Shown piece by piece: positions 3,661 to 58,144 of a stretch of DNA of 64,000 nucleotides (positions are counted from its first letter, which is position 1; each line of letters starts with the position of its first letter). Source of the DNA: a virus; IMG/VR virus record IMGVR_UViG_3300045988_162372; one strand, given 5' to 3'. The notes under the pieces are model-generated. The model worked only from the letters and a program-made list of their open reading frames with translations, was not told where the DNA came from and did no database searches. The position numbers were made by a program, and so were the translations under genes.

Positions 3661-5922
3661 TCAACTAATGGTCTTGCTTTTATTATATGTATTATTTATA
3701 ATGTCCCATATCTTATCAAGATAACCCATTCTTCTGATTATCTTGTAAATAACATTTCCGCTTCCCATTTCACCAGAACGCTTAAGACTCTCTTTCCGTA
3801 TTCCTTTTATTTTATCCAATAGTTTTTTAACATTCTTACCTATCATATCTATCTTATGGTTATCTGTTTCTTTTTTTAGGTCTTTTTCGTAACTGTCTAT
3901 CAGTGTCATAAACTTAGCTGCCTGTTCTTTGACATAGACTTCATTTATCTTAGCATCATCAATGTTTTTTGGTTCTTTAATCCATTCATTCTTGTCAAGC
4001 GAATAGACACCACCCGCCTCTAATTTATCGTCTTTATCTTGAACATATAATTCAACAGGAAAACCGTATATTGTTAAATCTTCATGGTCTCGTTTCCATA
4101 GTTCCTTTTTACTGTTAAAATAATCTTCTACAAATTCTTTTTTCTTGTATATCTTGCTGAAGTCTATAATGATATGCACATCAATGTCAGAATATTTAGA
4201 CCAATTATAATTTGCAATAGAACCTGTAAGAATTATATCCTCTGGTTTCACCCATCTTACAGAAAGTTCGTCTATAAAATCATCAGCTATGTCAAGAAGT
4301 CTTAATCGTACCCGTGAATTAAGTTTATCATTAACCCATATCTTAGGATTAAGTTCATCTTGTACTTCAAACGATTTCAAACTTATGTCAGAGCTTGACA
4401 CTTCATTTATTCTATTAACTGATTCAAGCACCCCTTGTTGGCGTAGATAATCTTCTCCAACAGTCTGACGCAGTATTTGTAATATAACAACATCATCCAC
4501 CCTATATTCTCCGATTTGATTAAGCAGTTTGTTATGCTCCCCTATATAGTTTGCAAAATCATATATATCACCATTACATTTCTTTAATATATTGCTGAAT
4601 GTTTCTTGATTATACCAATCTAGTTCTTCAATTCTAAAATTCCTACCTTGAATACTAACAGAACTATCACGGGAGGTTACTTCGCCCCCATTCATGAATT
4701 CAAATGTATGATTTTCAAATTCAGATTTATCAACTTCAATAGAAAATACAACGCCTCTTGCAAAATTATCTTTGAAAGATGTGAAAAACCAGTTAACTCC
4801 ATAAGTCTCCCCAGTCCTTTTTCCATGACGAGCATTTATTTCTCCATCAAGCAATATATCTTCCAACGCAAATATATCAGTTCCATGATATAGTCTTATT
4901 TTTTGTGGAAGACTATCATAATTTTCAGGTTTCCATTCATTTATATGTTGCACAGATTCATTTGTCGGATTGGATAATATATTCATTATTTCTTGTTTTG
5001 TATGAAAAATGGGGTTTTCTTCTTTGTCAAACAAATAAACACCTTCAATAGCATTAGGCATTACAATACCCCTATACCCTATTTTTGGAAATTTTGTACC
5101 ATATCTCTTACTATTTTGCGCAATCTCGCCTTTAAATGCATTCCAATAAGGTTTGGAAGACGTATAAGGATCATCTTTTCCTGGATATGTAAATTCCTTA
5201 ACAAAGTCAAAGTCAAGTACAACTTTATTCTTATCTATATGGTCTGAATTAATTTTCAAAACCGCCATAGGTGATTTTTTATCATCATTATACATGCCAG
5301 CGTAAGATTTAGCAATAGCGAAATCAGATGTAAGGAAAACAAATCCGTCATTTTTTGCATTAAAAATTGAATTGTCTTGCATTTTTCTAAGACCTTTGGT
5401 TAAAATGCCATATAAATGCTTCATAACAGTACCATGATATAATGGATTGGCGATTTGGATTGTATGCGGATTTTTTACTGTATCATTAATTGTTACAGCC
5501 TTACCATTTACAATAATTTTATCAAATGCCTTTGATTGTTCACTTTGTAGGAATTGCTTAAATTCAGGTGATGCTGTTACATTATATGATGTATTTTCAA
5601 TATCTAAACTCAAGCCATCATCATCATAATCAACCATACCTATTATGACTTTGGGAAAACTAATGAAATAATCATATATTGCATTAATAACATCTCCACT
5701 ATTATGGAATTCATTTTTTAATGCCCCATCATTATAAAAGAAATGTTCTTTTACAGATGGAAAAGCATCGCATAATTCTTTAATCAAACGCATTAAAGTA
5801 TTACTATATCCGTCTTCCTCATTCAAAATATACACATTTCCTTTGAAGATGACTACCATATCATCAACATCCAAAGCATTGAAGTTACCATTTACATATC
5901 TTAATTCGCAAATATCAGCCAT
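3661..5922 (-). CDS. multidomain (polyvalent-type) protein: two ART-like LYHGT modules plus a C-terminal pol-beta-type nucleotidyltransferase
   Basis: Contains LYHGTVMKHLYG...GFVFLTSD and RLYHGTDIFALE...VNWFFTS. The C-terminus has TGSIANYNWSKYSDIDVHII, which fits the GS-x10-DxD NTase signature. Confidence 0.8.
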   Translation of the reverse strand: MADICELRYVNGNFNALDVDDMVVIFKGNVYILNEEDGYSNTLMRLIKELCDAFPSVKEHFFYNDGALKNEFHNSGDVINAIYDYFISFPKVIIGMVDYDDDGLSLDIENTSYNVTASPEFKQFLQSEQSKAFDKIIVNGKAVTINDTVKNPHTIQIANPLYHGTVMKHLYGILTKGLRKMQDNSIFNAKNDGFVFLTSDFAIAKSYAGMYNDDKKSPMAVLKINSDHIDKNKVVLDFDFVKEFTYPGKDDPYTSSKPYWNAFKGEIAQNSKRYGTKFPKIGYRGIVMPNAIEGVYLFDKEENPIFHTKQEIMNILSNPTNESVQHINEWKPENYDSLPQKIRLYHGTDIFALEDILLDGEINARHGKRTGETYGVNWFFTSFKDNFARGVVFSIEVDKSEFENHTFEFMNGGEVTSRDSSVSIQGRNFRIEELDWYNQETFSNILKKCNGDIYDFANYIGEHNKLLNQIGEYRVDDVVILQILRQTVGEDYLRQQGVLESVNRINEVSSSDISLKSFEVQDELNPKIWVNDKLNSRVRLRLLDIADDFIDELSVRWVKPEDIILTGSIANYNWSKYSDIDVHIIIDFSKIYKKKEFVEDYFNSKKELWKRDHEDLTIYGFPVELYVQDKDDKLEAGGVYSLDKNEWIKEPKNIDDAKINEVYVKEQAAKFMTLIDSYEKDLKKETDNHKIDMIGKNVKKLLDKIKGIRKESLKRSGEMGSGNVIYKIIRRMGYLDKIWDIINNTYNKSKTIS

Positions 5923-8998: not shown

Positions 8999-9565
8999 AT
9001 GAAAAATTTTCCAGTAAAAGTAGACGGTAAAGAATATTGGATTTCACGTTCAATAGCAGTATGTGTGTTTGTATTTAAAATAAAAGGCAATAAACTGTAT
9101 GCCTTAATTGAACGCAGAGGAAAAGGTGCTGCTGATGAACAAGGAAAGCTATGCACCTGCTCAGGGTATCTAGACTTCAACGAATGTGATAGAGAAGCTA
9201 CCACAAGAGAATTAATGGAAGAGTGTGGGTTTATTGCAAAAGAAGAACGTTTACAATTTATGTATATCAATTCAGACCCCAAAGCGGATAAAAGACAGAA
9301 TGTAACAATACATTATGTTTATTTTGCGAAAGGTAACGAAGACTTTAATGAGAAGAAAGCTATTGGGGGAGAAGTAGATGAGGTTGCCGATGTAAAATGG
9401 ATGGAGATCGGAAATTTTGATAAAGATAAGGTGCTATATGTTAATATTTATGATATAATGGCTGAAGATTGGGCATTTAATCATGACCATATCATGATAG
9501 ACCATTTATCTAAATTCTTTAAACTGAAATATAATGGGCAAGAAAAAGAAAAAGAATCTGATTGA
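8999..9565 (+). CDS. Nudix hydrolase
   Basis: Nudix box: SGYLDFNECDREATTRELMEECGF (Gx5Ex7REUxEExGU). Confidence 0.85.
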   Translation: MKNFPVKVDGKEYWISRSIAVCVFVFKIKGNKLYALIERRGKGAADEQGKLCTCSGYLDFNECDREATTRELMEECGFIAKEERLQFMYINSDPKADKRQNVTIHYVYFAKGNEDFNEKKAIGGEVDEVADVKWMEIGNFDKDKVLYVNIYDIMAEDWAFNHDHIMIDHLSKFFKLKYNGQEKEKESD

Positions 9566-18860: not shown

Positions 18861-19406
18861 ATGGTAGTATATAATAGGTATGTGAATAACAAAGACCACA
18901 CATGGTATGACAGTAGCAATGTGGTATATAGCCTATGTTATGACAACAATGAGGCTACAAAGAATCTAAAGATAGTATTCAAGAACGGAAGGACTTATCT
19001 TTATAAAAATGTAGATGTAAATGATTATATTGGTTTTAGAAGCGGAGAAAGCACAGGAAAAACAGTTAATCAATACATCGTTAAGAAATATCAAGGCGTA
19101 AGGCTTCCTGATACTGATATGGAAAAACTTGATGAACTAAAAGAAGAGTTTATCAACGACAATAAAATTACAGAAGAAGCATTTACTAATCTTGCCTATC
19201 ATTTGTCAGTTAATGATATTACTGGTGATTTCGCTTTGAAACTGAATGGTAAGACAATATACAGAGGCGTTGAAGGACAAGTTTCTATTCTTAATCTTCT
19301 TAAATGTATGAATATAAATTTCTCGATGAGTGAAGATTACGAACCAGAAGACGATAATATCGAAGATAACGAATTAAAGAAAGAAGAGGAAAAAAACAAT
19401 GAATAA
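18861..19406 (+). CDS. KTSC-domain protein
   Basis: YDSSNVVYSLCYDNNEATKNLKIVFKNGRTYLYKNVDVNDYIGF fits the KTSC pattern (S..i..i.Yd...L.V.F..G..Y.Y..V). Confidence 0.65.
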   Translation: MVVYNRYVNNKDHTWYDSSNVVYSLCYDNNEATKNLKIVFKNGRTYLYKNVDVNDYIGFRSGESTGKTVNQYIVKKYQGVRLPDTDMEKLDELKEEFINDNKITEEAFTNLAYHLSVNDITGDFALKLNGKTIYRGVEGQVSILNLLKCMNINFSMSEDYEPEDDNIEDNELKKEEEKNNE

Positions 19407-20541
19407 TGTAGATAAGCAATATTTAGACCTGCTCCAAGATATAATGGATAATGGAGTGTATAAAGAAACACGTAGTGGGGCTGTACGGTCTGTTTTTGGA
19501 CGTATGATGCGTTTTAATTTACAAGATGGACTTCCTATACTTACAACTAAGAAAGTATTCACAAAAGGCTTTATTTATGAATTACTATTTTTCTTAAAGG
19601 CTGAAAGAAATATTAAATATCTTGTAGATAACAATGTACATATATGGGATGATGATGCTTATAGATGGTTCAATAACCTACCTCAGAAAGAATTCCCTAT
19701 TACTCGTAAATTAGAAGAAAGTTTTACATATGTTATAAGAGATAAAAATGGAAATATTCTTTGTGAATATAATGATATGAAGGAACTCATTTCTGGTATC
19801 GAAAAAAATAAATTTTTGTATCATACGCAACAAGAAGATGAGATAGGAATTTCATTTATACGGAATGATACCTCACAATTACGTTTCTCATGCTTATATA
19901 AATTTGGTGATATTGGGCCGATCTATGGCTACCAGTGGCGTAATTGGAACGGTATAGACCAAATACAGAATATTATTAATACATTAAAAACAAATCCAAA
20001 TGATAGAAGAATAATTCTTTCCTCTTGGAATGTTGGAGAATTACGTTTTATGGCTCTTCCTCCCTGTCATTATTTCGCTCAGTTTTATGCACGTTCGTTA
20101 ACAAATATGGAACGTTTAGATTGGCTATGTGAGCATAGTAATGGAGAATATGATGAATGGAAAAGTGCTACAGTTGAAAAATTGGATGAACTTAATGTTC
20201 CCAAATACGGATTAAGCTGCATGTTAAATTGTCGCTCACAAGATGTTCCTCTTGGAACTGTTGGCAATTGGGTAAGTTATAGTATTCTTACCAATATGAT
20301 TGCCCAGTGTGTAAATATGATTCCTGATGAATTTATATGGATTGGAGGAGATTGTCATATTTATGAAAATCAAATTGAAGGAGTAAAAGAACAACTGACA
20401 AGAAATCCTCATAAATACAATCTTCCTAAATTGTGGCTTAACCCTGCTATTAAGAACATTGATGATTTTACCTTTGATGATATTAAGATTGAAGGATATG
20501 AAAGTTATCCAAGTATTAAATTTCCTTTAAGTGTTGGATAA
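19399..20541 (+). CDS. thyA: thymidylate synthase (ThyA family) with two insertions
   Basis: Motifs seen: RSGAVRSVFG..MRFNLQDGLPILTTKK, IYGYQWRNW, DRRIILSSWNVGE, catalytic ALPPCH, CRSQDVPLG..GN and GGDCHIYENQ. At 380 aa it is much longer than E. coli ThyA. Confidence 0.9.
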   Translation: MNNVDKQYLDLLQDIMDNGVYKETRSGAVRSVFGRMMRFNLQDGLPILTTKKVFTKGFIYELLFFLKAERNIKYLVDNNVHIWDDDAYRWFNNLPQKEFPITRKLEESFTYVIRDKNGNILCEYNDMKELISGIEKNKFLYHTQQEDEIGISFIRNDTSQLRFSCLYKFGDIGPIYGYQWRNWNGIDQIQNIINTLKTNPNDRRIILSSWNVGELRFMALPPCHYFAQFYARSLTNMERLDWLCEHSNGEYDEWKSATVEKLDELNVPKYGLSCMLNCRSQDVPLGTVGNWVSYSILTNMIAQCVNMIPDEFIWIGGDCHIYENQIEGVKEQLTRNPHKYNLPKLWLNPAIKNIDDFTFDDIKIEGYESYPSIKFPLSVG

Positions 20542-33486: not shown

Positions 33487-34596
33487 TTATTTTTGATGTA
33501 TCTTCGCAAATTCGCTCCTTTCATGTGGATTATAAAGTGTTGGTGCTATAACTCCCAATGTAAATGGCATAATACTTGCAACGCCTAATGCCTGTAAAGC
33601 AAGACAAACATCATCCAATGTCGCACCGCTTGAAAGATTATCATCAAATACTATGACATGTTTTCCTGCTATTTTATACTGTATATCCTTGTATTTTGGG
33701 TTAATGGTAAATATGCCTTCAATAGAGCGTCTTTCTTTGTCATCAATTGACTTTATTTGCCAATTCTTTACTTTGCCAGTTTCTTTATCAATTGTCGGAT
33801 CAAGCCCTTTTTGCCCCTTTCTTAGATTTTTAATATCTTGGTTATACAAATCCACTTGTTGTTTCTTTTGAAGAATATTGTTAGGTAATCTTCCCCTATT
33901 CCCTTTTCTTTGGGAAAGATAAGATGATATTTCGTTTTGTAATTCATCTATTTTACGCCTAACATCTCTTATATCCTCATCTTTCTTCCATTTATTAACT
34001 TTCATCTGTAATCTATGAATTTGATTATCATCCAATCCTGCATTTCTCGCAGCATCAACATTTACATAGATGTTTCTTACATTCTTCACTAATAGTTCAG
34101 GTTGTAGTTTAATCCCTTCACTTTGAGGATACATATTAATCAGTTTACCAGTTATCTCTCTATTAAACTGTGAAGAAGATTGAGGAAAAGTAATAATATC
34201 AACAGGATTGTTTCCTATTATATATTTAATCAGCATAACTGAACGATTTATGAACTGTTGCATTGTCTTTTCATCCCTGATTACAGTTCTTTTCTGCATA
34301 TCAATCCCATGTTTTAACGCCTTATTCACATCCATATTTTTAATATTATATAGATTATAGGACATTACGTTTGATTTTGGTAATAATACCTTTCTAACCT
34401 TCAATGATTTATCTGGGTTGAATAATGTATCATCAATTTTGCTATTAGCACCAGGACGATAAGAAACCATACGGTTATCAGTACCTTTTACAGTCTTGAA
34501 ATCCAATGCTTCATTATCAAGCGTTTCAAACAAAAGGTCTATATTTTCTTGCAAATATCTATATTGTGCTTCTGTGATTTTAATCGTTTTTCCCAT
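33487..34596 (-). CDS. protein with a C-terminal type-I phosphoribosyltransferase (ComF-like) domain and the N-terminal leader motif
   Basis: PRPP-binding motif HVIVFDDNLSSGATLDDV lies about 38 aa from the C-terminus. The N-terminus is MGKTIKITEAQYRYLQENI. Confidence 0.7.
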   Translation of the reverse strand: MGKTIKITEAQYRYLQENIDLLFETLDNEALDFKTVKGTDNRMVSYRPGANSKIDDTLFNPDKSLKVRKVLLPKSNVMSYNLYNIKNMDVNKALKHGIDMQKRTVIRDEKTMQQFINRSVMLIKYIIGNNPVDIITFPQSSSQFNREITGKLINMYPQSEGIKLQPELLVKNVRNIYVNVDAARNAGLDDNQIHRLQMKVNKWKKDEDIRDVRRKIDELQNEISSYLSQRKGNRGRLPNNILQKKQQVDLYNQDIKNLRKGQKGLDPTIDKETGKVKNWQIKSIDDKERRSIEGIFTINPKYKDIQYKIAGKHVIVFDDNLSSGATLDDVCLALQALGVASIMPFTLGVIAPTLYNPHERSEFAKIHQK

Positions 34597-34648
34597 TATA
34601 TTAATAACATTTAACTATATAGATATAAATAGTTTCAGATATTATCTG

Positions 34649-34656
34649 TATCTTTG
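34649..34656 (+). promoter_or_regulatory. -7 box TATCTTTG upstream of the recombinase gene; the -33 is only TTTC
   Basis: ctgTATCTTTGcattg lies 108 nt upstream of ATG 34764. Confidence 0.5.
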
Positions 34657-34763
34657 CATTGTTAAAAGAATAAGAAACTATGCAACAATTTTTCTAACAA
34701 ATAATTAAAATATATAGTAATTTTTATATTAATGAGATATTTATATATAAAAGATAATAAATT

Positions 34764-35360
34764 ATGAAATCAAGCAAAGTAAAACAAATATTAAATGTAA
34801 CGCAACAAACCTTAAGCAACTATGTTGCCAAAGGGATATTGCATCCAGTGAAATTATCAAAAACACACTATGAATATGACGAGAATGAGGTTTATGCCTT
34901 GCTTGGTAAAAACAAGAACAATGACAGAATTTCTGTAACTTATGCAAGGGTTTCACTTCCAAAGCAAAAGGATGACTTGGAAAGACAAATTGAAAGGCTC
35001 TATTCCTATGCCATAAGCAACGGATATAATATTTCTGAACAGCTTTCCGACATAAAAAGCGGAATGGAATTTGAAAAACGCAAGAATTTCATGAAGCTGC
35101 TCAATATGGTTTGCGAAAATAGAGTCAAGACAGTAATTGTTGAAAATAAGGACAGGCTTGTACGTTTTGGATTCAATCTCTTGAAAGAGGTTTTCAAATT
35201 ACATGGTACGGAAATTCTGGTAATGTCTGATATTCCCAACAAATCTTATGAGCAAGAATTGACAGATGACCTTATTTCAATCATTCATTATTATTCAATG
35301 AAAAGTTATTCAAACAGAAGAAAATTGAACAATGCAGAAAAGATATTGAAAGGAGAATAA
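34764..35360 (+). CDS. tnpA: IS607-family serine recombinase (MerR-type HTH plus resolvase core)
   Basis: N-terminal HTH KVKQILNVTQQTLSNYVAKGIL, catalytic region VTYARVSLPKQKDDLERQ, and VIVENKDRLVRFG. Confidence 0.9.
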   Translation: MKSSKVKQILNVTQQTLSNYVAKGILHPVKLSKTHYEYDENEVYALLGKNKNNDRISVTYARVSLPKQKDDLERQIERLYSYAISNGYNISEQLSDIKSGMEFEKRKNFMKLLNMVCENRVKTVIVENKDRLVRFGFNLLKEVFKLHGTEILVMSDIPNKSYEQELTDDLISIIHYYSMKSYSNRRKLNNAEKILKGE

Positions 35361-35366
35361 ACAATC

Positions 35367-36995
35367 ATGATTACACGTAAGATAAAAATAACATATTGTA
35401 GCGATTTTGATTTTATCAAAGATAAGGTCAAAAGCTACTCCTATGCTATGAGGCTTATGTGTAAGATGATTGACGAATCTTCCGACAACAACTTTATTGC
35501 AAAATTCAAGACAAGGTTTAATCTTACAGACATCGAATATCGCTCGCTTGTTGCGGATGTAAAAGCGAAAATTACTTCAATGGAAACAACCAATGAGAGC
35601 AAGAAGAAGAAAATCGAAGAATTGAACAAGAGATTGTACGAGGACAAGATTTTGACAAAGAGGGAAAAATATAAGATATTTAACAAGGTTGCATTCCTTA
35701 CCAAATCGTTAGAGAATAATCTTGTCTTTGGCGGAAGAAATCTCCTGCAAAAGATAACAAGGGAATACAATAAAAAGTCGGACAAGGACGAAAAACTATT
35801 GAACGAATACTTGACAGAATACAGGAATAAAAGGAATGGAATACCTTGCTTTATCACTGGTGAAGCAAATCAGAAAGGCAATAGATTCTTTGATTTTTCG
35901 GGCTTGGGCAATAGTAAAGTGATTTATAAACCCTTTAAGGGAAAGAGGATTGAAATTGAATTCAAATTGCCAAAGAAGTTCAAAAATGATTTTTTGAAAC
36001 TCTCTGAAATGGTAGGAAAGAAGGAGATTTCCCTCACGGTTTCGCTTGGTTTGGAATACATTTATTTCACTTTTGATGAGGAAAAACTGAATGGGTACGC
36101 CATTGACGAAATTGAAAGGAGATTGGATGTCAAGGAAATCAAGAGACAAGGTTATCCGAAAGAGATTGAAACATTGAAAATAAAGGAGGTTTATAAGGAG
36201 TATTACGACAGACAAAGGGAAAGGAAACTTGTTGGAAAGATTAAAGACAGATGTGTTGCGGTTGATTTGAATCCTACAAACATTGGTTTTTCCATATTGG
36301 ATAAAACAGATGAAAACATCAGTATAATCCATTGCGGATGGTTTGATATGGAAAGGTTTTGCGTTAAAACTGGCAATGCTTCAGACAGTAAAGAACAAAG
36401 ATATCTAAACAACAAACGCAAATATGAATTGACTGTTGTTTTGAAAAAACTGTTTAATATCGCAAGATATTACAAATGCTCGCAATTCATAATGGAAGAT
36501 TTGGATGGTGATTTTAAAAACAAGGGAAAAGAGACCAATAGGAAGGTTAAGAATGTATGGAATAGAAACTTGATTGAAAATATCATAAGGAGGAGATGCA
36601 ATGAAAACGGTATAGAATTGATAAAGATAAATCCTGTGTATTCCAGTTTCATAGGAAACATCCAATACGGCTATGTGGATGCGGTAAACGCTTCCATTGA
36701 AATTGGAAGGCGTGGATTATTTAAATATACAAAGGGTACATTTTATCCGCATATCAGATACAAGGATTTGGACACTGTGGAAGCCAAATTTGGCGTAGAT
36801 GTTCCGAATGGTACTTCATCTGATTGGGTAACAATGTACAAGTCCTTAAAAGATTTATTTCCAGATGGAAATGAATTTTCACACAGATTGAGGACGGCAT
36901 TGAATGACATTCCAAAGAATAAGTATTCAATGTTCAGCATGAGTTCACATTATAGTAAAGTAAACTATATAAGATTTAATATTAAAAACTATTAA
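35367..36995 (+). CDS. tnpB: TnpB-like RuvC nuclease, 542 aa, apparently without the zinc-ribbon (TNB) insert
   Basis: RuvC-I is CVAVDLNPTNIGF (D300), RuvC-II is QFIMEDLDG (E377) and RuvC-III is YVDAVNASIEIGRRG (D438). Between INPVYSSFIG and D438 there are only ~8 residues and no CxxC pairs. Confidence 0.8.
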   Translation: MITRKIKITYCSDFDFIKDKVKSYSYAMRLMCKMIDESSDNNFIAKFKTRFNLTDIEYRSLVADVKAKITSMETTNESKKKKIEELNKRLYEDKILTKREKYKIFNKVAFLTKSLENNLVFGGRNLLQKITREYNKKSDKDEKLLNEYLTEYRNKRNGIPCFITGEANQKGNRFFDFSGLGNSKVIYKPFKGKRIEIEFKLPKKFKNDFLKLSEMVGKKEISLTVSLGLEYIYFTFDEEKLNGYAIDEIERRLDVKEIKRQGYPKEIETLKIKEVYKEYYDRQRERKLVGKIKDRCVAVDLNPTNIGFSILDKTDENISIIHCGWFDMERFCVKTGNASDSKEQRYLNNKRKYELTVVLKKLFNIARYYKCSQFIMEDLDGDFKNKGKETNRKVKNVWNRNLIENIIRRRCNENGIELIKINPVYSSFIGNIQYGYVDAVNASIEIGRRGLFKYTKGTFYPHIRYKDLDTVEAKFGVDVPNGTSSDWVTMYKSLKDLFPDGNEFSHRLRTALNDIPKNKYSMFSMSSHYSKVNYIRFNIKNY

Positions 36996-37007
36996 ATATG
37001 TTAATTT

Positions 37008-37748
37008 ATGTATCTGACAAAAGAAATCATTTTAGGAAGAGAAGAGAATTATGATGCAACCAAACTGAACTGTTGGGACTTCTGCAAAGGTGCTGACATT
37101 CGTGAAGGTATTAATATGAAATTTGGAAATATGCTTACTGATTTTCCGTTTGAAGTGAATGGGGTAAAATTCAAATGCAGTGAAATGTTATATCTTTGTG
37201 GACAATATTCAGATGGAAGTAAAACAAATAGCCAAATACAAAAAATGATTTGTGAATGTAATAACGGTTTCGCCGCCAAGAAATTCATTCGTAACAAATA
37301 TATTGATAATGTAAGAAAAGATTTTAACGATTTCAGAATACAATGGATGTTCTGGGTTGTATGGCAAAAGGTGATTGGCAATGAGGATTTTAAAAATTTA
37401 CTTCTTTCTGTACCAGATGATGCAATTATTATAGAAAACTCAAGTTGGCAAACAAGTACGACTGCTACTATATGGGGATGCAAGAATATGGAATTGAGAA
37501 GAATTAGACAGAATGTGAAACTTGAAATTGAGAACATCAGCACTCATATGACAAAAAAAGATGTCGAACATCTTGTTAGTGTTGAAACAAACAAAGTGAA
37601 TCAAGTCGGTGTATTCACAGGTCAAAATAATTTGGGGAAAATACTTATGCTTTGCAGGGAAGCTATTAAGAATAATATAATTCCAAAAATTGATTACAAT
37701 TTATTGTCTAAATATGATATATTTCTGATGAACAAGCGTTTGTTCTAA
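37008..37748 (+). CDS. NADAR (YbiA/DUF1768)-like protein
   Basis: LTDFPFEVNGVKFKCSEMLYLCGQY, RIQWMFWVVWQKV..NEDFKNLL and IIENS....IWGC match the NADAR motif order (SNF..F...G..F.S.EH..Q..K, W....M....KF, E....D..WG). Confidence 0.7.
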   Translation: MYLTKEIILGREENYDATKLNCWDFCKGADIREGINMKFGNMLTDFPFEVNGVKFKCSEMLYLCGQYSDGSKTNSQIQKMICECNNGFAAKKFIRNKYIDNVRKDFNDFRIQWMFWVVWQKVIGNEDFKNLLLSVPDDAIIIENSSWQTSTTATIWGCKNMELRRIRQNVKLEIENISTHMTKKDVEHLVSVETNKVNQVGVFTGQNNLGKILMLCREAIKNNIIPKIDYNLLSKYDIFLMNKRLF

Positions 37749-37789
37749 TATATTTATAATATAATAATGGATTGTTTCATATTGAACTT

Positions 37790-38167
37790 ATGACGAAATA
37801 TACTATATCAGAGAGTAGGTTAAAAGAACTCGTTGTGGAAGAAGTAAAAAGCGTTGTTACTAAAAGACGCTTAATGAATGTTGTCTATAAGGCAACACAA
37901 CAACTTACCAGTCGTTTATACAATGATGACCATTGGCAAGGAGTGAATGATGTTCGTGACGCATTAGGAAAATTGGGCATTGAGTCAGATATTTATCCTA
38001 TCGACGGAGGCTATCGACAAAATAAAGATGGAGATGCATTCTGGAAAGAATATCAAGTACAACTTCAATATGGAGGTGTAGTCGTAAATGGCATTCTTAA
38101 CTGTCATGCGGCAGGTAGTGTTGAAGATCCATTTGATAGATATGATATGACGCTTCAATTATGGTAA
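37790..38167 (+). CDS. small protein with the leader motif
   Basis: The track start 37772 is TTG; the ATG at 37790 gives MTKYTISESRLKELVVEEVKSV. Confidence 0.6.
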   Translation: MTKYTISESRLKELVVEEVKSVVTKRRLMNVVYKATQQLTSRLYNDDHWQGVNDVRDALGKLGIESDIYPIDGGYRQNKDGDAFWKEYQVQLQYGGVVVNGILNCHAAGSVEDPFDRYDMTLQLW

Positions 38168-38209
38168 AATAATAATTATTTTTCAAGTAGTTTCTTATTT
38201 TATTATTAT

Positions 38210-38971
38210 ATGAATATATCCCCTTTTAAAAGTTTTAAAGAAATGGTAAATGAAGCCGTTGAAAATATGAATGGCAACGGTATGTATTATAAGTTCCAAA
38301 TAGATAATGCTTTTAGATATAAAGCTGTTACTATTCTGGCTCAAAATGGTTATCTTGTACATGGAACTGATGCTGAATTTGATAGTTTTGATAGTTCCAA
38401 AATAAGAGGTGGAACAAGAGGTAATTATGGTTACGGTGCTTATTTTACAAATGCTGCATATAAATGTGAAGAATATGGTCGAAACTTTATATTTCTATAT
38501 GCAAGAGATTTCAATTTTTTAAATTTGGCACAAAAGGTAGCTGATAATGATATATATAAAGATATCAATAAACAAGTAGATTATATTAGACAGAATATCG
38601 CCTATTTTGAGGAAATGCTTTATAGTGTTCGTACTGTAAAGGAATATGAATATGCTGAAAAAGAATTAAAAACGTATAAGGAACAATTAGATGACATATT
38701 ACCAGATAGTAAAACAGAAGCGTTTATTGAACAGTATAATTTAATACTAAGAAAAAATCCTGATATTGATTACCGTAATATGACAAAGAAATTAGACAAT
38801 ATCTTCACTAATGCAATGGGTGCTGATTTTGTTGCTAATATGTTTCTTAAAGCAGGATATGACGGTTATACAATAGACTTTGAATATGTTATTTTCAATT
38901 TTGAAAAATTAAATCAGAATATTGTAAAGGATAAAAACGCATTACTCGAAAAGCTGATGAATAACAATTAA
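38210..38971 (+). CDS. ART-like (ADP-ribosyltransferase-fold, polyvalent-protein type) protein
   Basis: YLVHGTDAEFDSFDSSKIRGG followed by YGYGAYFTNAAYKCEEYG. The same two-motif pattern occurs in 3661..5922 and 56862..57671. Confidence 0.6.
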   Translation: MNISPFKSFKEMVNEAVENMNGNGMYYKFQIDNAFRYKAVTILAQNGYLVHGTDAEFDSFDSSKIRGGTRGNYGYGAYFTNAAYKCEEYGRNFIFLYARDFNFLNLAQKVADNDIYKDINKQVDYIRQNIAYFEEMLYSVRTVKEYEYAEKELKTYKEQLDDILPDSKTEAFIEQYNLILRKNPDIDYRNMTKKLDNIFTNAMGADFVANMFLKAGYDGYTIDFEYVIFNFEKLNQNIVKDKNALLEKLMNNN

Positions 38972-38991
38972 TCGAATCAATAATTTTTATT

Positions 38992-39465
38992 ATGCAAAGC
39001 ACAGTAACATTTATAGGATATAAGAAAGAAAGTTTGTTTCCAATATTGGAATATCTTGCTGATAATGGTAATAATCAACAGCTTGTAACACTTGATGTTG
39101 ATGAATTTTTCTTTGGTAGAGATTTAATTTTCGACACACTAAAAATTTCCAATCTGCACATTAATAATGATAAAGATGGATATATACATACAGCCTCATT
39201 TACATGTACTTCTCACGTTGCAAAAAATCTATTAAAGTTGTTCTACTATATCAAACAACTTGGTGATGGCGGTCATAGTTACACAATCAAAATTAACAAA
39301 GAAAAATTTTCTTGGGATGGCGATGGTTCTGATAGAATTATTAAGATAAATGGACAGGATTGCAAAAGTTGGAAGCAAATGGAAAAGAATTTCACTATTT
39401 ATTTAAAAAAAGAAGATTCTTTGAATGAAGAATATATAATTGAGAATAGTTATAGAATAGAATAA
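38992..39465 (+). CDS. hypothetical protein
   Basis: 157-aa ORF with an ATG start. Confidence 0.55.
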   Translation: MQSTVTFIGYKKESLFPILEYLADNGNNQQLVTLDVDEFFFGRDLIFDTLKISNLHINNDKDGYIHTASFTCTSHVAKNLLKLFYYIKQLGDGGHSYTIKINKEKFSWDGDGSDRIIKINGQDCKSWKQMEKNFTIYLKKEDSLNEEYIIENSYRIE

Positions 39466-39484
39466 TTCTTAAAAAAAAATATAA

Positions 39485-39700
39485 ATGATTAGTACAATAA
39501 TTGCTTGTGTTATTGCAAATATTCTAACAGCAGCTATCGTTGCAGGTATTGCTTATTACTTCTATAAGAAAAACGAATTAACAATTAAAAATACCATCAA
39601 TGAGGTAAAAGATAAGATAAACAACATATCAGGCACTGTAGAAACTGTTACTGATACAATTAATAGTATCAAAGAAAAGTTAGAAAAACTTCCTTTCTAA
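39485..39700 (+). CDS. small membrane-anchored protein
   Basis: 71 aa; N-terminal TM segment (IIACVIANILTAAIVAGIAYYF), then a coiled-coil-like tail. Confidence 0.5.
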   Translation: MISTIIACVIANILTAAIVAGIAYYFYKKNELTIKNTINEVKDKINNISGTVETVTDTINSIKEKLEKLPF

Positions 39701-39724
39701 AAAGTTTGGCTTTTATATTTTATG

Positions 39725-39762
39725 TTCCTGTACTATTTGAAAAATAATAGTACAGGAATTTT
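39725..39762 (+). terminator. strong intrinsic terminator
   Basis: ttcctgtactatt/aatagtacaggaa forms a 13-bp perfect stem with an 8-nt loop, followed by tttt. Confidence 0.8.
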
Positions 39763-39805
39763 ACATTTTTAACGTGTAGTTCTTGTATATGTCAGATATT
39801 AGCAG

Positions 39806-39813
39806 TATATTTG
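39806..39813 (+). promoter_or_regulatory. -7 box TATATTTG; the -33 is CTTG
   Basis: agcagTATATTTGcaaag lies 35 nt upstream of ATG 39848. Confidence 0.5.
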
Positions 39814-39847
39814 CAAAGAAATAAAGTAATTAAACAACTATACTAAT

Positions 39848-40174
39848 ATGTTAACAAAAGAACAATTTCACAAAATTTTTGAACTTATCAAAAAACAGAA
39901 AGAAGTTGAAGATAAATTCGATAAAGGTATGGAAATGGCATTTCCTGAATGTATTGCACCAATAATGCCAGATGGTATTCTATGGGATGCTCTTATAGAT
40001 ACATTGTCTTACGCAATGAATGATACTGATAAATTCATCGAATGGTGGGTATACGAAGACCAAATGAAGGGCAGATTGACTGTTAGGGATAATGATGTGG
40101 AATATACTTTTCATAATGCTGATGAATTATATGACTATCTGGTTAAGAATAATAAGCAAAATAATGCATCATGA
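39848..40174 (+). CDS. hypothetical protein
   Basis: 108-aa ORF with an ATGA overlap to the next gene. Confidence 0.55.
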   Translation: MLTKEQFHKIFELIKKQKEVEDKFDKGMEMAFPECIAPIMPDGILWDALIDTLSYAMNDTDKFIEWWVYEDQMKGRLTVRDNDVEYTFHNADELYDYLVKNNKQNNAS

Positions 40175-40422
40175 CAATATTAGTAATAATTGGAATAACG
40201 TTGTTGGTGACTTTAGGGATGAGTACGTTATTACTATGGTATGATGTACATCATCAAAAACATAGCAAACCTGTATATTCAAAAGAAGTGTTGGAAAAGT
40301 TAATTCAAGATTTAAAACAAGAAATTAACTATAAAATTGCTAATGATGATGATTTTAGATTGGAATTATGTTTGGATTATCTTGAATATTATGAAAATGA
40401 GTTAAAAAAATATCAAAAATAA
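40171..40422 (+). CDS. small membrane protein
   Basis: 83 aa; N-terminal TM segment ILVIIGITLLVTLGMSTLLLW. Confidence 0.5.
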   Translation: MTILVIIGITLLVTLGMSTLLLWYDVHHQKHSKPVYSKEVLEKLIQDLKQEINYKIANDDDFRLELCLDYLEYYENELKKYQK

Positions 40423-40429
40423 TGAAAGT

Positions 40430-40642
40430 ATGATTGAAAAGAAAGAAGCTAAAACATATATAGTTAGACTATATTGCAATAATTGCGGAAATGAGATGAA
40501 AAGTACTGGGGTTGTGCTTACATCATATCCTGAACAATATCCTTACGAATGTCCTAATTGTGGATGGAAAACAACCGCTACAGAATTATACCCTAAAGTT
40601 GAATATCAAGAAATGGATTATGAAGAAGATAATGTTCAATGA
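40430..40642 (+). CDS. zinc-ribbon mini-protein
   Basis: 70 aa; contains CNNCGN...CPNCGW. Confidence 0.6.
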   Translation: MIEKKEAKTYIVRLYCNNCGNEMKSTGVVLTSYPEQYPYECPNCGWKTTATELYPKVEYQEMDYEEDNVQ

Positions 40643-44648: not shown

Positions 44649-45824
44649 ATGGAAAAGAAAACGATTACAAGTGAATTTGTAAGTTATGGCCATCCTGACA
44701 AAATCGCAGACCAAATCGCCGATGCTATTCTTGATGAATATCTTAAAATGGATGAAAATACCCGTGCGGGTATTGAAGTAATGGTGAAAGATAATGTTGT
44801 TGTATTGGGTGGTGAGATTTCATCAAAAGCGGCAGTAAATTATGACACCATTGTACGGAATGTGTTTAATGACATTAAATTCCCTGACAATCATCATTTA
44901 AATCCTGACAATATCAAGATTATTAATTTGATTGGAAAACAATCACCTGAAATCCATCAAGGGGTTGATAAAAGTGAAACTATCATTGGGGCTGGCGACC
45001 AGGGATTTATGGTTGGTTATGCAAGCAATGAAACAGAGGTATTAATGCCTTTGGGATATTATATTGCTAAGAAGATTTGTCAATGTATTGCCAATTACAA
45101 AGCATTGCAGCTTGGCCCAGATACTAAATCACAAGTCATTGTAGATTATGATGAACATGGAAATGCTGAAATATCTTCCATCCTTGTTTCAACAATGCAT
45201 CAATGCAGTATTGAGAAAGTACGTGAAGTTGTAAAACAAATTATATTGACTAACCAAATGGGTCTTGAAACTGAATTGTTTAACAAATACATTTTGGAAA
45301 AGAATATAAGGATTGATATAAATCCTTGCGGAACTTGGAATATTGGAGGCCCAGTATCAGATTGTGGCGTGACAGGTAGAAAACTTGTTGTAGATAGTTA
45401 TGGCGGTTATTGTAACATAGGTGGCGGAAATATTTCTGGTAAAGATCTATCAAAAGTTGATAAATCTGCTGCTTATATGGCACGTTACCTTGCAAAGAAC
45501 ATAGTTGCATCGGGTATTTGTAATAAAGCTAAGGTTGAACTCTCTTATATGATTGGTATCCCAGAACCGTCTTCCATCAATATTGAAATGGATAAGAATC
45601 AAGAGTTTGTTGAATATTTGAAACAATGGATAAAGGCAAACATTGATTTGACACCGTATGGTATTATCACCCATTTTCATGGAGGATATCCTCGTAATTA
45701 TTATCTTTCCAAAAATGGTCACTACGGTGTGAATACGATTGGTAATATAAATCTATACAGAATGTATCCGTGGGAAAGTATAGACCAAGCAGATGCAATA
45801 CGTGATTATTTTAATAAAAAATAA
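44649..45824 (+). CDS. metK: S-adenosylmethionine synthetase
   Basis: Motifs seen: GHPDKIADQI, GAGDQGFMVGYA, GGPVSDCGVTGRKLVVDSYGG and GGGNISGKDLSKVDKSAAY. Confidence 0.95.
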   Translation: MEKKTITSEFVSYGHPDKIADQIADAILDEYLKMDENTRAGIEVMVKDNVVVLGGEISSKAAVNYDTIVRNVFNDIKFPDNHHLNPDNIKIINLIGKQSPEIHQGVDKSETIIGAGDQGFMVGYASNETEVLMPLGYYIAKKICQCIANYKALQLGPDTKSQVIVDYDEHGNAEISSILVSTMHQCSIEKVREVVKQIILTNQMGLETELFNKYILEKNIRIDINPCGTWNIGGPVSDCGVTGRKLVVDSYGGYCNIGGGNISGKDLSKVDKSAAYMARYLAKNIVASGICNKAKVELSYMIGIPEPSSINIEMDKNQEFVEYLKQWIKANIDLTPYGIITHFHGGYPRNYYLSKNGHYGVNTIGNINLYRMYPWESIDQADAIRDYFNKK

Positions 45825-46165: not shown

Positions 46166-46205
46166 ATTGTTTGTTATACTTATTATATATAATATTATAC
46201 AAATT

Positions 46206-48323
46206 ATGAATTTAGAAGAAACTATAAAAAGAATGGAGCTTCTATCCAAATATGATACCAAGAAAGCTCTGAATGAATGGGGAGAACCTGACTGTAAGGG
46301 GTGGCTTAATATTGGAGTTGTACCTGACAGCAATCCGTTTTTTGGAAGACGAGAAAAAGACGGTAATGATATGTACATTATGGTTAATCCTAATGCAGAA
46401 CAGATTGATGATATGTCCACGTTCCGTTATAGAAATGTTACATATAATACAAAACCAGATGGAACTGGTTTATCAAATAATTTACCTGTTAATGATTTAC
46501 GAAGAGTAAAGATTTATCCAGAATATCGTGACACCTATTATGGAGACCTATTTTTAGGAAAACGTAAGGGCGAACAAGGGGAGATTATGCATAAGGAATT
46601 CATGTCTAATCTTAACATTTCAGGTGATAAAGTTATTCTAAAACATGATAGCAGTGTCAAAATTACAGACGGTGTTATTAAGAAAGGAAAGACAAATAGT
46701 TATTCTAACAACAGTGATATTGGAATATATTTTTGGGGTAGCAAGAAAATAGGTAGTGACCCATCTAACGGTCAAACATATACCTATATTTGTACAGTTC
46801 CATTATCAGATGTTTATGATTTTGAAACAAATCTTGAACGATTCCCAAGTCTTGACCAAGCAATGCAAGAGCATAAATATTGCGCACAATATTGGAATAA
46901 AGACAAATCAAACGCAATTGTTGTAAATACATTTTCTCGAACACCTATTCAAGCGATTAGGGATAATACAAACGGAAAAGTTTACAATGCAAATTGGGAG
47001 GAAATAGATATGCAAGTTGAAAGTAAGAAACCGAAAGGCAATTTCATTAATGAATACAAACCTAATACCTGCAACAAGGCTGATTTAGTATCCATTAATG
47101 AAGTAAACGCTAAAAGTATGCTTCAACGTCACGGAGATAGTGGTTTTATTGTTATTTCTCCTTGCAGGGGATTTGCAGATTTCAAACTTGACCCTAACGA
47201 TCCACAATCTAAACAAAAATTGTCAGAAATCAATAACCAACGTGTACGTGAAATGATACAACAAATCAAACATAGTGGATATTCTTATACTCCTGTATAT
47301 GGCGGTTTTATTGAAAATGCTGGTACTGAAGATGAGGAAAATGTATATGAACGTTCATTTGTCATTTACAACAAAAGACGTGATGGTTCTGAAGGTGATA
47401 TAAAGAAACTGATTGATTTTGGACAAGCATTAGCACAGCAATACAATCAGGATAGCTTCTTGGTGAAAGCTCGTGGAGAGAAACCTAAATACATTACTCA
47501 AAACGGTGATGTTGATATGGAATTTAGTGGTAATACCTCTTTCAACGATTTCTCGCAAGAATATTTCACTGATTTACATAAGAATACAGATAAATATGCA
47601 AAGGATAATAATCGTAAGCCTACACGTTTCTCATACGTGGAAAGTTATATCAATCCTGCGCCCCAATGCTATTCAGAACGTCATATAAGAAGTTTGAATG
47701 GGGAAATATTTCTTACTGAAACCAGTCGCAGACAAAAGGCTCAACAAGCTGTTAACGGGAAACTATCTAACTTAAAAAGTTTTGCAATCCTTACATCAGA
47801 CAATCCAATGGGCAAGAAACTTTCTTCATCAGAAAATGCTTCTAATTATGAAAGTCTTATGAAAGATTTAAAACTTGGTAATTTCTTGTATTTTCCAGTA
47901 AAAGGTAAATATAATGATATTGAACATTCTGTTATTATCTACAATATTTCATTAGATGATGCAATTTATCTCGGCGATACATATAATCAGGAAAGTATTA
48001 TATATTGTATACCTAATTTGCAAAACAGTTCTGTACATTATGAGTATTGGGAAAGAAGCGCAGAGGGAAAACCTTTAAGAAAAACTATTGAAAGAGATGA
48101 ATATGTTGATGCAACTAACGACAAAGATATGTTCACCCAAATCAGTAGGAAATTCAAAATTAGAATACCATTTTTTGAAAATATCGAAAAGGTATGTACA
48201 TTTATTAAGAGTAGAATGAAAACAGTCAATAATGCAGAAAAGTTATTGAATGAATCTATGAGTAACAAGTATACTGGTAAACATAAAATGATTTGTAGGT
48301 ATAAGTTGTATACACAGAAGTAA
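46206..48323 (+). CDS. large multidomain hypothetical protein with an internal duplication
   Basis: The track ORF begins at 46167; I prefer the ATG at 46206 (MNLEETIKRMELL). Two related segments are ...VISPCRGF...YSYTPVYGGF...ERSFVIYN and ...FAILTSDNPMG...FLYFPVKGKY...EHSVIIYN. Confidence 0.75.
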   Translation: MNLEETIKRMELLSKYDTKKALNEWGEPDCKGWLNIGVVPDSNPFFGRREKDGNDMYIMVNPNAEQIDDMSTFRYRNVTYNTKPDGTGLSNNLPVNDLRRVKIYPEYRDTYYGDLFLGKRKGEQGEIMHKEFMSNLNISGDKVILKHDSSVKITDGVIKKGKTNSYSNNSDIGIYFWGSKKIGSDPSNGQTYTYICTVPLSDVYDFETNLERFPSLDQAMQEHKYCAQYWNKDKSNAIVVNTFSRTPIQAIRDNTNGKVYNANWEEIDMQVESKKPKGNFINEYKPNTCNKADLVSINEVNAKSMLQRHGDSGFIVISPCRGFADFKLDPNDPQSKQKLSEINNQRVREMIQQIKHSGYSYTPVYGGFIENAGTEDEENVYERSFVIYNKRRDGSEGDIKKLIDFGQALAQQYNQDSFLVKARGEKPKYITQNGDVDMEFSGNTSFNDFSQEYFTDLHKNTDKYAKDNNRKPTRFSYVESYINPAPQCYSERHIRSLNGEIFLTETSRRQKAQQAVNGKLSNLKSFAILTSDNPMGKKLSSSENASNYESLMKDLKLGNFLYFPVKGKYNDIEHSVIIYNISLDDAIYLGDTYNQESIIYCIPNLQNSSVHYEYWERSAEGKPLRKTIERDEYVDATNDKDMFTQISRKFKIRIPFFENIEKVCTFIKSRMKTVNNAEKLLNESMSNKYTGKHKMICRYKLYTQK

Positions 48324-50579: not shown

Positions 50580-51149
50580 TTAATTATTTTCCTCCTTTTT
50601 ATTATATTTTGACGGTACAATTACCTCATTTATGTATTTTTTGTCAACAAATTCTGTCAGCCAAACATCATTATTTGATAAGAAAAATCTATCACCATCT
50701 TCTTTCATATGTTTTGCATTAATGACAAATATACAGGGTCTTCCATGACGTTTACCAACTTTTAATGCCGTTTCTTTATCCGATGATAAATGCACATATT
50801 GTCTTGTTGCTTTATTAATACCAGTATCTTCAATGCTTTCAATAAACCTTGTTGCAGTTCCGTGATACAAAATATCAGGTGGTGTACATTCTTTTAATTC
50901 TACATCCACATTGATTGAATGCCCTTGTCTTGCCCTAATTTTTGTTTTATCTTCTGAAAATTCGTATCTTTTTTTATCATTAGTCTCTACAATCTTATTT
51001 AATAATTCAAATGTAAAGTCTTGATTTTCAATTAAGTCGGATACTTCTCTATATCCATGTTCGTCAAATTGATAATCTTTATCATGTCGTAAAAGAAAGG
51101 AGAGCTTTTTGCCCATCCTTTCCAAATATTCTTGTGCATAATCTTCCAT
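50580..51149 (-). CDS. kptA: RNA 2'-phosphotransferase, Tpt1/KptA family
   Basis: Motifs seen: LSFLLRHD, KRYEF, IRARQGHSI, LYHGT and YVHLS. These fit the Tpt1 R-H-R-R signature positions. Confidence 0.85.
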   Translation of the reverse strand: MEDYAQEYLERMGKKLSFLLRHDKDYQFDEHGYREVSDLIENQDFTFELLNKIVETNDKKRYEFSEDKTKIRARQGHSINVDVELKECTPPDILYHGTATRFIESIEDTGINKATRQYVHLSSDKETALKVGKRHGRPCIFVINAKHMKEDGDRFFLSNNDVWLTEFVDKKYINEVIVPSKYNKKEENN

Positions 51150-58113: not shown

Positions 58114-58144
58114 CAAAGGTAAGAATAAAATATAGGTTTGCAAA
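58114..58144 (-). promoter_or_regulatory. Bacteroides-type promoter (minus strand)
   Basis: The + strand shows caaaggta at 58114-58121 (TACCTTTG) and caaa at 58141-58144, with a 19-nt spacer. Confidence 0.65.

Follow-up and report, generated by a model that had tools for sequence, protein, structure and literature searches.

Large bacteriophages commonly encode ADP-ribosyltransferases (ARTs): more than 40% of jumbo phages carry them, Bacillus phage G has at least ten, and in large phages ARTs are found together with NADAR, Nudix and KptA genes (PMC9503650). In the polyvalent effector proteins of phages the commonest predicted protein-modifying enzyme domain is ART-PolyVal (PMC5512222), a clade whose catalytic triad places a His on strand 1, a Tyr on strand 2 and an Asp on strand 5, and which is predicted to modify proteins (Iyer et al., 2017, PMC5512222). 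Other ARTs stand side by side with a NADAR gene in one transcription unit, as in DarT1-NADAR and YarT-YbiA (PMC11543638, PMC11125620), and phage T4 combines several mono-ARTs, Alt, ModA and ModB, in one genome. Here we describe a gene at positions 38210..38971 (the focal gene) of a 64,000-nucleotide stretch of DNA from the IMG/VR virus record IMGVR_UViG_3300045988_162372; we call this whole stretch the window (Table 1). Judged by its sequence, the focal open reading frame (ORF) is a divergent member of the ART-PolyVal clade (Tox-ART-HYD2-like, H-Y-D). We think it probable that its product is a stand-alone, NAD+-dependent mono-ADP-ribosyltransferase of that clade which modifies a host macromolecule, most likely a protein.

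The assignment is carried by the family. Metagenomic protein collections yielded 32 homologues of the focal protein, and 26 of them, at 31-91% identity, form our family alignment; the ART-PolyVal profile (PF18760) is matched by 24 of 26 homologues at E <= 0.01, with a best value of 1.7e-7. H51, Y78 and D218 are invariant among the 26 sequences, H51 within VHGT, Y78-F79 within GYGAYFT and D218 within GYDG, as are G67-G68-x-R70, G74, G76, F79, Y84-K85, G90, G219 and N230-F231-x-K233. An AlphaFold2 (AF2) model of the focal protein (predicted local distance difference test, pLDDT, 87.7) has the strand order of an ART, with H51 in strand 1 (E48-53), Y78 in strand 2 (E77-80) and D218 directly before strand 5 (E219-222), and this placement is the His/Tyr/Asp configuration of polyvalent-protein ARTs (PMC5512222). 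The original prediction, made from the bare sequence of the window, had named H-Y-E or R-S-E as the triad to look for; that of ART-PolyVal is H-Y-D (PMC5512222). Profile-profile alignment of the focal family with the family of a second window gene, a 269-aa ORF, gave a probability of 95.5% (hhalign, E 1.5e-8), pairing H51 with H58, AYFT with IFLT and GYDG with GCDG, while control comparisons with an unrelated domain reached at most 0.7%. Among predicted viral structures (BFVD) the top match of the focal model is a “PolyVal ADP-Ribosyltransferase” (E 3.6e-18, template modelling score 0.67, 36% identity), which is the predicted structure of a relative, not a solved structure. The focal protein resembles the ART-PolyVal domains of phage and conjugative-element polyvalent proteins in profile homology, H-Y-D triad, phage origin and the existence of giant-protein relatives, and shares with them the motifs (V/Y)HGT, YF(T/S), DG and (Y)xxF.

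Several observations weigh against this assignment or against the activity that we propose. Taken alone, the focal protein scores 22.1 bits against PF18760 (E 2.9e-4), under the gathering score of 31.2. A sequence-profile search of the PDB with the focal family returned only chance matches, and a Foldseek search of the focal model against the PDB found nothing at E <= 0.001; its best matches, tankyrase (E 0.65) and PARP2 among them, range from E 0.65 to 2.8; they agree in direction with an ART but are not significant and do not count as evidence. The split beta-sheet of the ART fold, which we take as the core of the focal protein, has homology behind it rather than an independent match to a structure; a helical insert described below probably hampers comparison with solved structures. 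The position of the PARP-type Glu (E226) is variable in the family, holding E, Q, V or I. We found no biochemical study of any ART-PolyVal member, and no assayed member of the focal family, in the searchable literature; transferase rather than NAD+ glycohydrolase (NADase) activity and the kind of target are assumed. Finally, with a conserved NADAR next to the focal gene, a nucleic-acid target would be a better fit than a protein one.

The low single-sequence score and the missing PDB fold match would also suit a chance resemblance, in which the HGT pattern means nothing and the focal ORF is not an ART. Against this, the motif [LV][YV]HGT occurs five times in the 80 non-overlapping ORFs of the window (19,372 aa), where 2,000 residue shuffles of the same proteome averaged 0.0075 and reached 1 at most; PF18760 is matched across the family, the hhalign probability stands far from its controls, and the BFVD match is strong. 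Profile and structure comparisons already contradict a chance resemblance, which we regard as extremely improbable. A different alternative keeps the fold and drops the transfer: the focal protein might bind NAD+ without modifying a macromolecule, as a NADase or phosphorylase, or be a catalytically silent ART-fold scaffold whose function resides in the helical insert. Among ART clades, some are NADases (PMC9503650), and the variable Glu position, the size of the insert (about 40% of the protein) and the absence of an assayed family member point the same way. Yet H51, Y78, D218, the GGxR loop at residues 67-70 and a YK..EYG helix show no or almost no variation among deeply diverged members, which speaks for a functional active site; the clade is placed among protein-modifying ARTs (PMC5512222), and destroying NAD+ would bring little gain to a phage that also carries the NAD+-using KptA. 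We consider this alternative very unlikely, and return to the focal protein as a mono-ADP-ribosyltransferase.

Two features set the focal subfamily apart from the usual ART-PolyVal. One is the helical insert, of about 105 residues, which splits the ART core between E103-105 and E219-222 with helices at residues 110-113, 117-139, 143-163, 167-182, 188-203 and 207-214 (AF2); it is kept throughout the family, also in copies embedded in giant proteins. The other is the invariant GGxR loop. Both are specific to the subfamily, and of all its parts they seem likeliest to recognise the target. The focal and 269-aa proteins further differ from most ART-PolyVals in being stand-alone, not parts of polyvalent proteins, and the focal gene sits in a NADAR-led operon, not beside head or MuF genes. 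No ART gene of the window lies inside a polyvalent protein or adjacent to head genes, and the focal gene stands among small early-type genes.

A profile search of 1.84 billion representative proteins found 229 relatives of the focal family at E <= 0.001. Many of these matches lie in proteins of 1,300-5,566 aa and cover the whole domain including the insert; Pfam recognised nothing in the giant relatives beyond the ART domain, and we infer their polyvalent architecture from length only. The family was found on phage-like contigs only, and when 185,579 species genomes of bacteria and archaea were scanned by motif, none of the 98 pattern matches was confirmed as the focal subfamily. On this distribution the subfamily seems confined to viruses, and it is found as stand-alone proteins and also within giant ones. 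One metagenomic protein of 459 aa (P0090) fuses a focal-type ART-PolyVal to a domain otherwise seen as the second ART module of a 753-aa protein of the window, here reading LYQGT instead of LYHGT; from this fusion, it follows that the domains are shuffled among proteins, as in polyvalent proteins.

We infer the catalytic activity, the target and the timing of the focal protein as follows. H51 on strand 1 and Y78 on strand 2 would hold NAD+, and D218, in GYDG at the start of strand 5, would help transfer. The operon layout has the gene transcribed after NADAR from a Bacteroides-type promoter, and during infection of a Bacteroidales host the enzyme would transfer ADP-ribose to a host macromolecule, in favour of the phage. 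By analogy the target is most likely a protein; we take this as the default because of the T4 enzymes Alt, ModA and ModB as well as the published prediction for the ART-PolyVal clade. The T4 enzymes modify host proteins, which is our working model here, and like them the window ARTs occur several to a genome. They belong, however, to the R-S-E clade (Alt/VIP2) and have no family-level homology with the focal ART, and T4 Alt has been shown to be packaged and injected.

The genomic setting might point to another kind of target. The focal gene belongs to a unit with the order NADAR, orf131, ART, orf157, orf71, terminator. The NADAR gene passes the Pfam NADAR cut-off (39.1 bits against 35.1) and matches the NCBIfam NADAR-family model below threshold (70 bits where 240 are required, E 1.1e-19); a PDB sequence search with it gave no match. 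A terminator-like hairpin beyond orf71, the sole such site in 34500..40500, probably closes the unit. In all seven relatives at least 50% identical to the focal ART (loci L029, L030 and L047-L051, 50-96% identity) the order is a divergent phosphoribosyltransferase-like (PRTase-like) gene, then NADAR, ART and orf157, with NADAR-ART gaps of 24-51 nt, and the NADAR-then-ART adjacency with such gaps occurs in five phage lineages besides that of the window. Like DarT1-NADAR and YarT-YbiA (PMC11543638, PMC11125620), the window places an ART and a NADAR side by side in one transcription unit; unlike them, its ART is of the ART-PolyVal clade, NADAR comes first, the carrier is a lytic-type jumbo phage, and the pair is confined to one collinear clade.

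ART and NADAR may on this evidence be a writer and an eraser acting on nucleic-acid bases, as in those two systems, the ART marking guanine or cytosine in host DNA or RNA and the NADAR keeping phage nucleic acid or the producing cell unmarked. NADARs are known to remove ADP-ribose from guanine and cytosine and to serve as antitoxins to neighbouring ARTs (PMC11543638, PMC11125620, PMC12945103), and the window agrees in several ways: NADAR is the immediate upstream neighbour of ART, in the same orientation, in every relative at or above 50% identity, one promoter box and one terminator serve the unit, and several DNA methylase genes adjoin it. The adjacency fails at greater distance, however, with no NADAR beside the ART in the loci examined at 31-41% identity, and since the clade that keeps the pair is collinear in this region, adjacency may simply be inherited; we did not see ART and NADAR kept together across unrelated genomic contexts. 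Small ORFs such as orf131 move in and out of the pair, an insertion element sits at the NADAR start codon in this phage, another explanation offered for phage NADARs is counter-defence against DarT1-type toxins of the host (PMC11125620), and the published prediction for ART-PolyVal is protein modification (PMC5512222). On balance we think a writer/eraser pair unlikely. Function may hold the two genes together, as it does in DarT1-NADAR and YarT-YbiA (PMC11543638, PMC11125620), but inherited gene order could explain the pairing equally well. That the operon might constitute phage-borne reversible base ADP-ribosylation, the ART writing on host or phage DNA or RNA and the NADAR erasing where a clean template is needed, appears quite unlikely; if true, it would be the first case of an ART-PolyVal acting on nucleic acid, and also the first offensive ART-NADAR pair encoded by a phage. 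A widely conserved ART-NADAR pair was also considered, and rejected beyond the one collinear phage clade.

The conserved NADAR neighbour offers a ready target hypothesis for the focal ART, and the stand-alone, apparently intact ART-PolyVals of 253 and 269 aa should be far easier to express and assay than giant polyvalent proteins.

The focal gene is one of several ART genes in the window. All five [LV][YV]HGT sites fall inside ART-superfamily domains, and the looser HG[TS] was seen eight times in the window ORFs against 1.6 +/- 1.2 expected. From His to the aromatic-x-(T/S) strand the sites measure 15, 24, 27, 33 and 33 residues. By sequence, the window holds five ART-superfamily domains in four genes and three clades: ART-PolyVal twice, the KptA type twice and a PARP-like module once. 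The original prediction had described these HGT modules as an expansion of one family resembling polyvalent-protein ARTs. The HGT and strand strings that it quoted all occur where it placed them, and profile matches and profile-profile alignments agree with it that the modules, KptA included, belong to the ART superfamily; the spacing of ~40-60 aa that it gave was wrong, at 15-33 residues, and the likeness to polyvalent-protein ARTs applies to the focal and 269-aa proteins and not to the two modules of the 753-aa protein. We rejected a single expanding family because these two modules fail to align with the families of the ART-PolyVal genes: the hhalign probability is at most ~4% for module 2, and for module 1 it is 36% with the 269-aa family and 0.7% with the focal one. 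With five domains from three clades, the window ARTs are therefore an accumulation and not the expansion of one family.

Two of the five domains lie in the 753-aa protein, which joins two different ART modules to a nucleotidyltransferase and is conserved in many gut phages of 170-430 kb; its 83 homologues are mostly 750-1,050 aa long and come from contigs of up to 428 kb. Module 1 aligns with the window KptA (hhalign 93%, E 3.2e-7; residues 161-232 to 94-151), and 19 of 25 members of the family match PTS_2-RNA. Like Tpt1/KptA (PF01885), of which the window KptA is a full member, it has the C-lobe motifs LYHGT, (V/F)xL(S/T)S and xVxxIN; unlike Tpt1/KptA it is without the RNA-binding N-lobe, has Phe for the second His, and is fused to another ART module and a nucleotidyltransferase. 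The N-lobe of Tpt1 holds most of the Arg-His-Arg-Arg catalytic residues. The triad of module 1 reads H-F-I, a KptA-like H-H-h type with Phe in second place, and its third residue is not a conserved acidic one. A reading of module 1 as a second complete KptA was rejected, because residues 1-150 give a probability of 0.1% against KptA and supply no N-lobe; these residues have no detectable relatives and no Pfam match.

Module 2 comes close to the Pfam PARP cut-off in this protein (26.1 bits against 26.7, residues 323-382), and PARP is matched by 22 of 25 family members, at best with E 2.3e-8. H346, E372, N377-W378-F379, S394, F407 and N411 are invariant, and W378/F379 occupy the Tyr position of an H-Y-E triad. 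The AF2 model puts E414 where strand 5 is predicted to begin; this residue is acidic in 21 of 25 members and holds the likely place of the acidic residue of the third motif, whose conservation the original prediction had named as a test and which module 1 lacks. A structural search with an AF2 model of residues 140-500 (pLDDT 81.7) returned only ART-superfamily structures among the 50 best Foldseek matches in the PDB, namely the Rhs toxin TreX, Tpt1/KptA, the A subunits of cholera, pertussis and heat-labile toxins, DarT1 and Scabin, at E 2e-3 to 4e-2 and with probabilities mostly of 0.9-1.0 (Tpt1/KptA 1.00); the search does not resolve which module each match covers. The C-terminal domain matches NTP_transf_2 (28.3 bits against a cut-off of 21) and phrog_36119 (1e-47), with 24 of 25 members matching NTP_transf_2 and the GS...DxD motif invariant in the family. 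Its only sequence similarity in the PDB is to the AMPylation domain of Legionella DrrA/SidM, weak (E 0.03) and around GS...DxD.

The two remaining ART genes are more conventional. The 269-aa family keeps H58, D220-G221, Y238, F241, Q245 and S248 invariant, and in the window protein and its close relatives the strand-2 Tyr is a Phe (F73). The KptA ORF covers positions 5-176 of the 177 of PF01885, matches phrog_5470 at 3.8e-60 and aligns with the Tpt1 structure 7kw8 at E 2.2e-38 through LRH, RxxQGHS, HGT, VHLS and RHGxP; the conserved motifs of both lobes are present.

As genome biology this is nothing out of the ordinary, because the build-up of ART, NADAR, Nudix and KptA genes in jumbo phages is already known. 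Multi-ART jumbo phages have been described (PMC9503650), and a 36%-identical relative of the focal protein is already labelled as a PolyVal ART in UniProt-derived data. Modestly new are the subfamily with helical insert and GGxR loop, its NADAR-led operon, and the protein that combines a KptA lobe, a PARP-like module and a nucleotidyltransferase. The window had been called unusually rich in NAD/ADP-ribose chemistry on account of NADAR-like, Nudix and PRTase-domain genes besides the ARTs: NADAR and Nudix are confirmed and the PRTase-like gene is only weakly supported, all its matches being sub-threshold (Pribosyltran 17.7 bits; ComF and phosphoribosyl pyrophosphate (PRPP)-synthase models at E ~1e-3). 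The richness itself is not unusual, as ARTs with NADAR and Nudix have already been described in jumbo phages (PMC9503650).

Table 1. Features of the window discussed in the text, with positions on the 64,000-nucleotide stretch.
Feature	Position	Strand	Basis or remark
Focal gene, stand-alone divergent ART-PolyVal type, 253 aa	38210..38971	+	Family-level PF18760, hhalign, triad, AF2; LVHGT residues 49-53, GAYFT 76-80
Predicted triad codons of focal gene	H51 38360..38362, Y78 38441..38443, D218 38861..38863	+	Predicted
Helical insert, ~105 residues (~110-214)	38537..38851	+	AF2 secondary structure; separates strand 4 from strand 5
NADAR-domain gene (ADP-ribose N-glycosidase family)	37008..37748	+	Pfam; first in operon
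orf131, 131 aa, function unassigned	37772..38167	+	Between NADAR and ART
orf157, 157 aa, downstream partner of ART gene	38992..39465	+	Conserved in relatives
Terminator-like hairpin	39724..39759	+	14-bp stem then T-rich tail
Bacteroides-type -7 promoter box TATCTTTG	34649..34656	+	Upstream of original NADAR start codon
PRTase-like gene, 369 aa, PRPP-binding-type motif	33487..34596	-	Sub-threshold matches; divergent from NADAR-ART operon
IS607-family insertion	~34683..37016	+	TnpA 34764..35360, TnpB-like 542-aa ORF 35367..36995
753-aa ORF	3661..5922	-	Site 1: LYHGT residues 161-165, GFVFLTS 193-199; site 2: LYHGT 344-348, NWFFTS 377-382
Module 1 (residues ~150-310), KptA C-terminal NAD-binding-lobe-like ART	4993..5475	-	Motif residues H163, F196, I292
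Module 2 (residues ~325-440), PARP-like ART	4603..4950	-	H346, W378, F379 invariant
Pol-beta-type nucleotidyltransferase domain (residues ~505-753)	3664..4410	-	NTP_transf_2
Canonical stand-alone ART-PolyVal, 269 aa	56862..57671	-	PF18760 68.7 bits vs cut-off 31.2; VYHGT residues 56-60, IFLT 72-75
Bacteroides-type promoter	58114..58144	-	Upstream of 119-aa ORF preceding 269-aa gene
KptA/Tpt1 RNA 2'-phosphotransferase, genuine	50580..51149	-	PF01885 144 bits; LYHGT residues 94-98, VHLS 119-122
Nudix hydrolase gene	8999..9565	+	PF00293 35.2 bits vs cut-off 21.1

This large gut phage is known only from metagenomes: a DNA search and tblastn of a 50,697-record phage collection returned nothing for the focal region. 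As a stand-in for the whole genome (roughly 216 kb) we used a 216,649-bp IMG/VR contig whose proteins are 96-99% identical to those of the window over the two regions compared, and which shares 40% of the window's sampled 31-letter words; all of its matches to the ART clan and to NADAR lie in the region equivalent to the window. The window has a G+C content of 31%, and the Bacteroides promoter motif TTTG-N17-21-TAnnTTTG occurs in it 22 times against 4.9 expected, which agrees with a Bacteroidales host. Its other genes include PTH2, deoxynucleoside monophosphate (dNMP) kinase, thymidylate synthase, UvrD helicase, three DNA methylases, S-adenosylmethionine (SAM) synthetase, ClpX- and ClpB-like ATPases and a tail-fibre protein.

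Around the focal gene the small ORFs differ between relatives. orf131 precedes the ART in the window and in L029 (3564..3959), follows it in L047 (4754..5134), and is missing from the NADAR-ART interval in L030 and L049-L051, behaving like a small mobile or frequently relocated gene. orf157, which has no Pfam or PHROG family, has homologues directly 3' of the ART in L030 and L049-L051 and after a 131-aa ORF in L047 and L048. In L029 (4001..5107), whose ART is 96% identical, the protein has 368 aa, about 115 of them in a C-terminal extension that replaces the separate orf157; a 97%-identical counterpart of the L029 ART (P0001) carries a precomputed PF13711 match. Since L029 has this extension where the window has a different, separate 157-aa ORF, sequences are swapped at the 3' end of the ART gene.

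Upstream, the unit has been altered by an insertion of the IS607 family, whose TnpA scores 176 bits against NCBIfam transpos_IS607 (cut-off 110) and whose TnpB-like ORF scores 29.6 bits against a TnpB-related domain (cut-off 32). Junctions read against L029 place the element exactly at the NADAR start codon; the promoter box TATCTTTG, identical in the window and L029 and at a site with a -7 box only, was left upstream of it, and NADAR gained a new start, MYL instead of M. The ART loci L029-L046 have no IS607 homologue, and the gene tables of L047-L051 list no ORFs between the PRTase-like and NADAR genes. On an unrelated contig (L053, 1667..3365) an IS607-type pair, a resolvase-type TnpA with a Cas12f1-like TnpB, adjoins a distant homologue of the focal ART, and IS607 elements seem common in these phages.

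Two further genes of the window drew our attention. A 718-aa protein (46167..48323) combines a SAM lyase domain (38 bits) with DUF3293 (55 bits) and lies just downstream of the SAM synthetase gene (44649..45824), making neighbours of a gene that makes SAM and one that destroys it. The thymidylate-synthase-family protein at 19399..20541 has 380 aa against the 266 positions of the Pfam profile, some 100 residues of it being extra.

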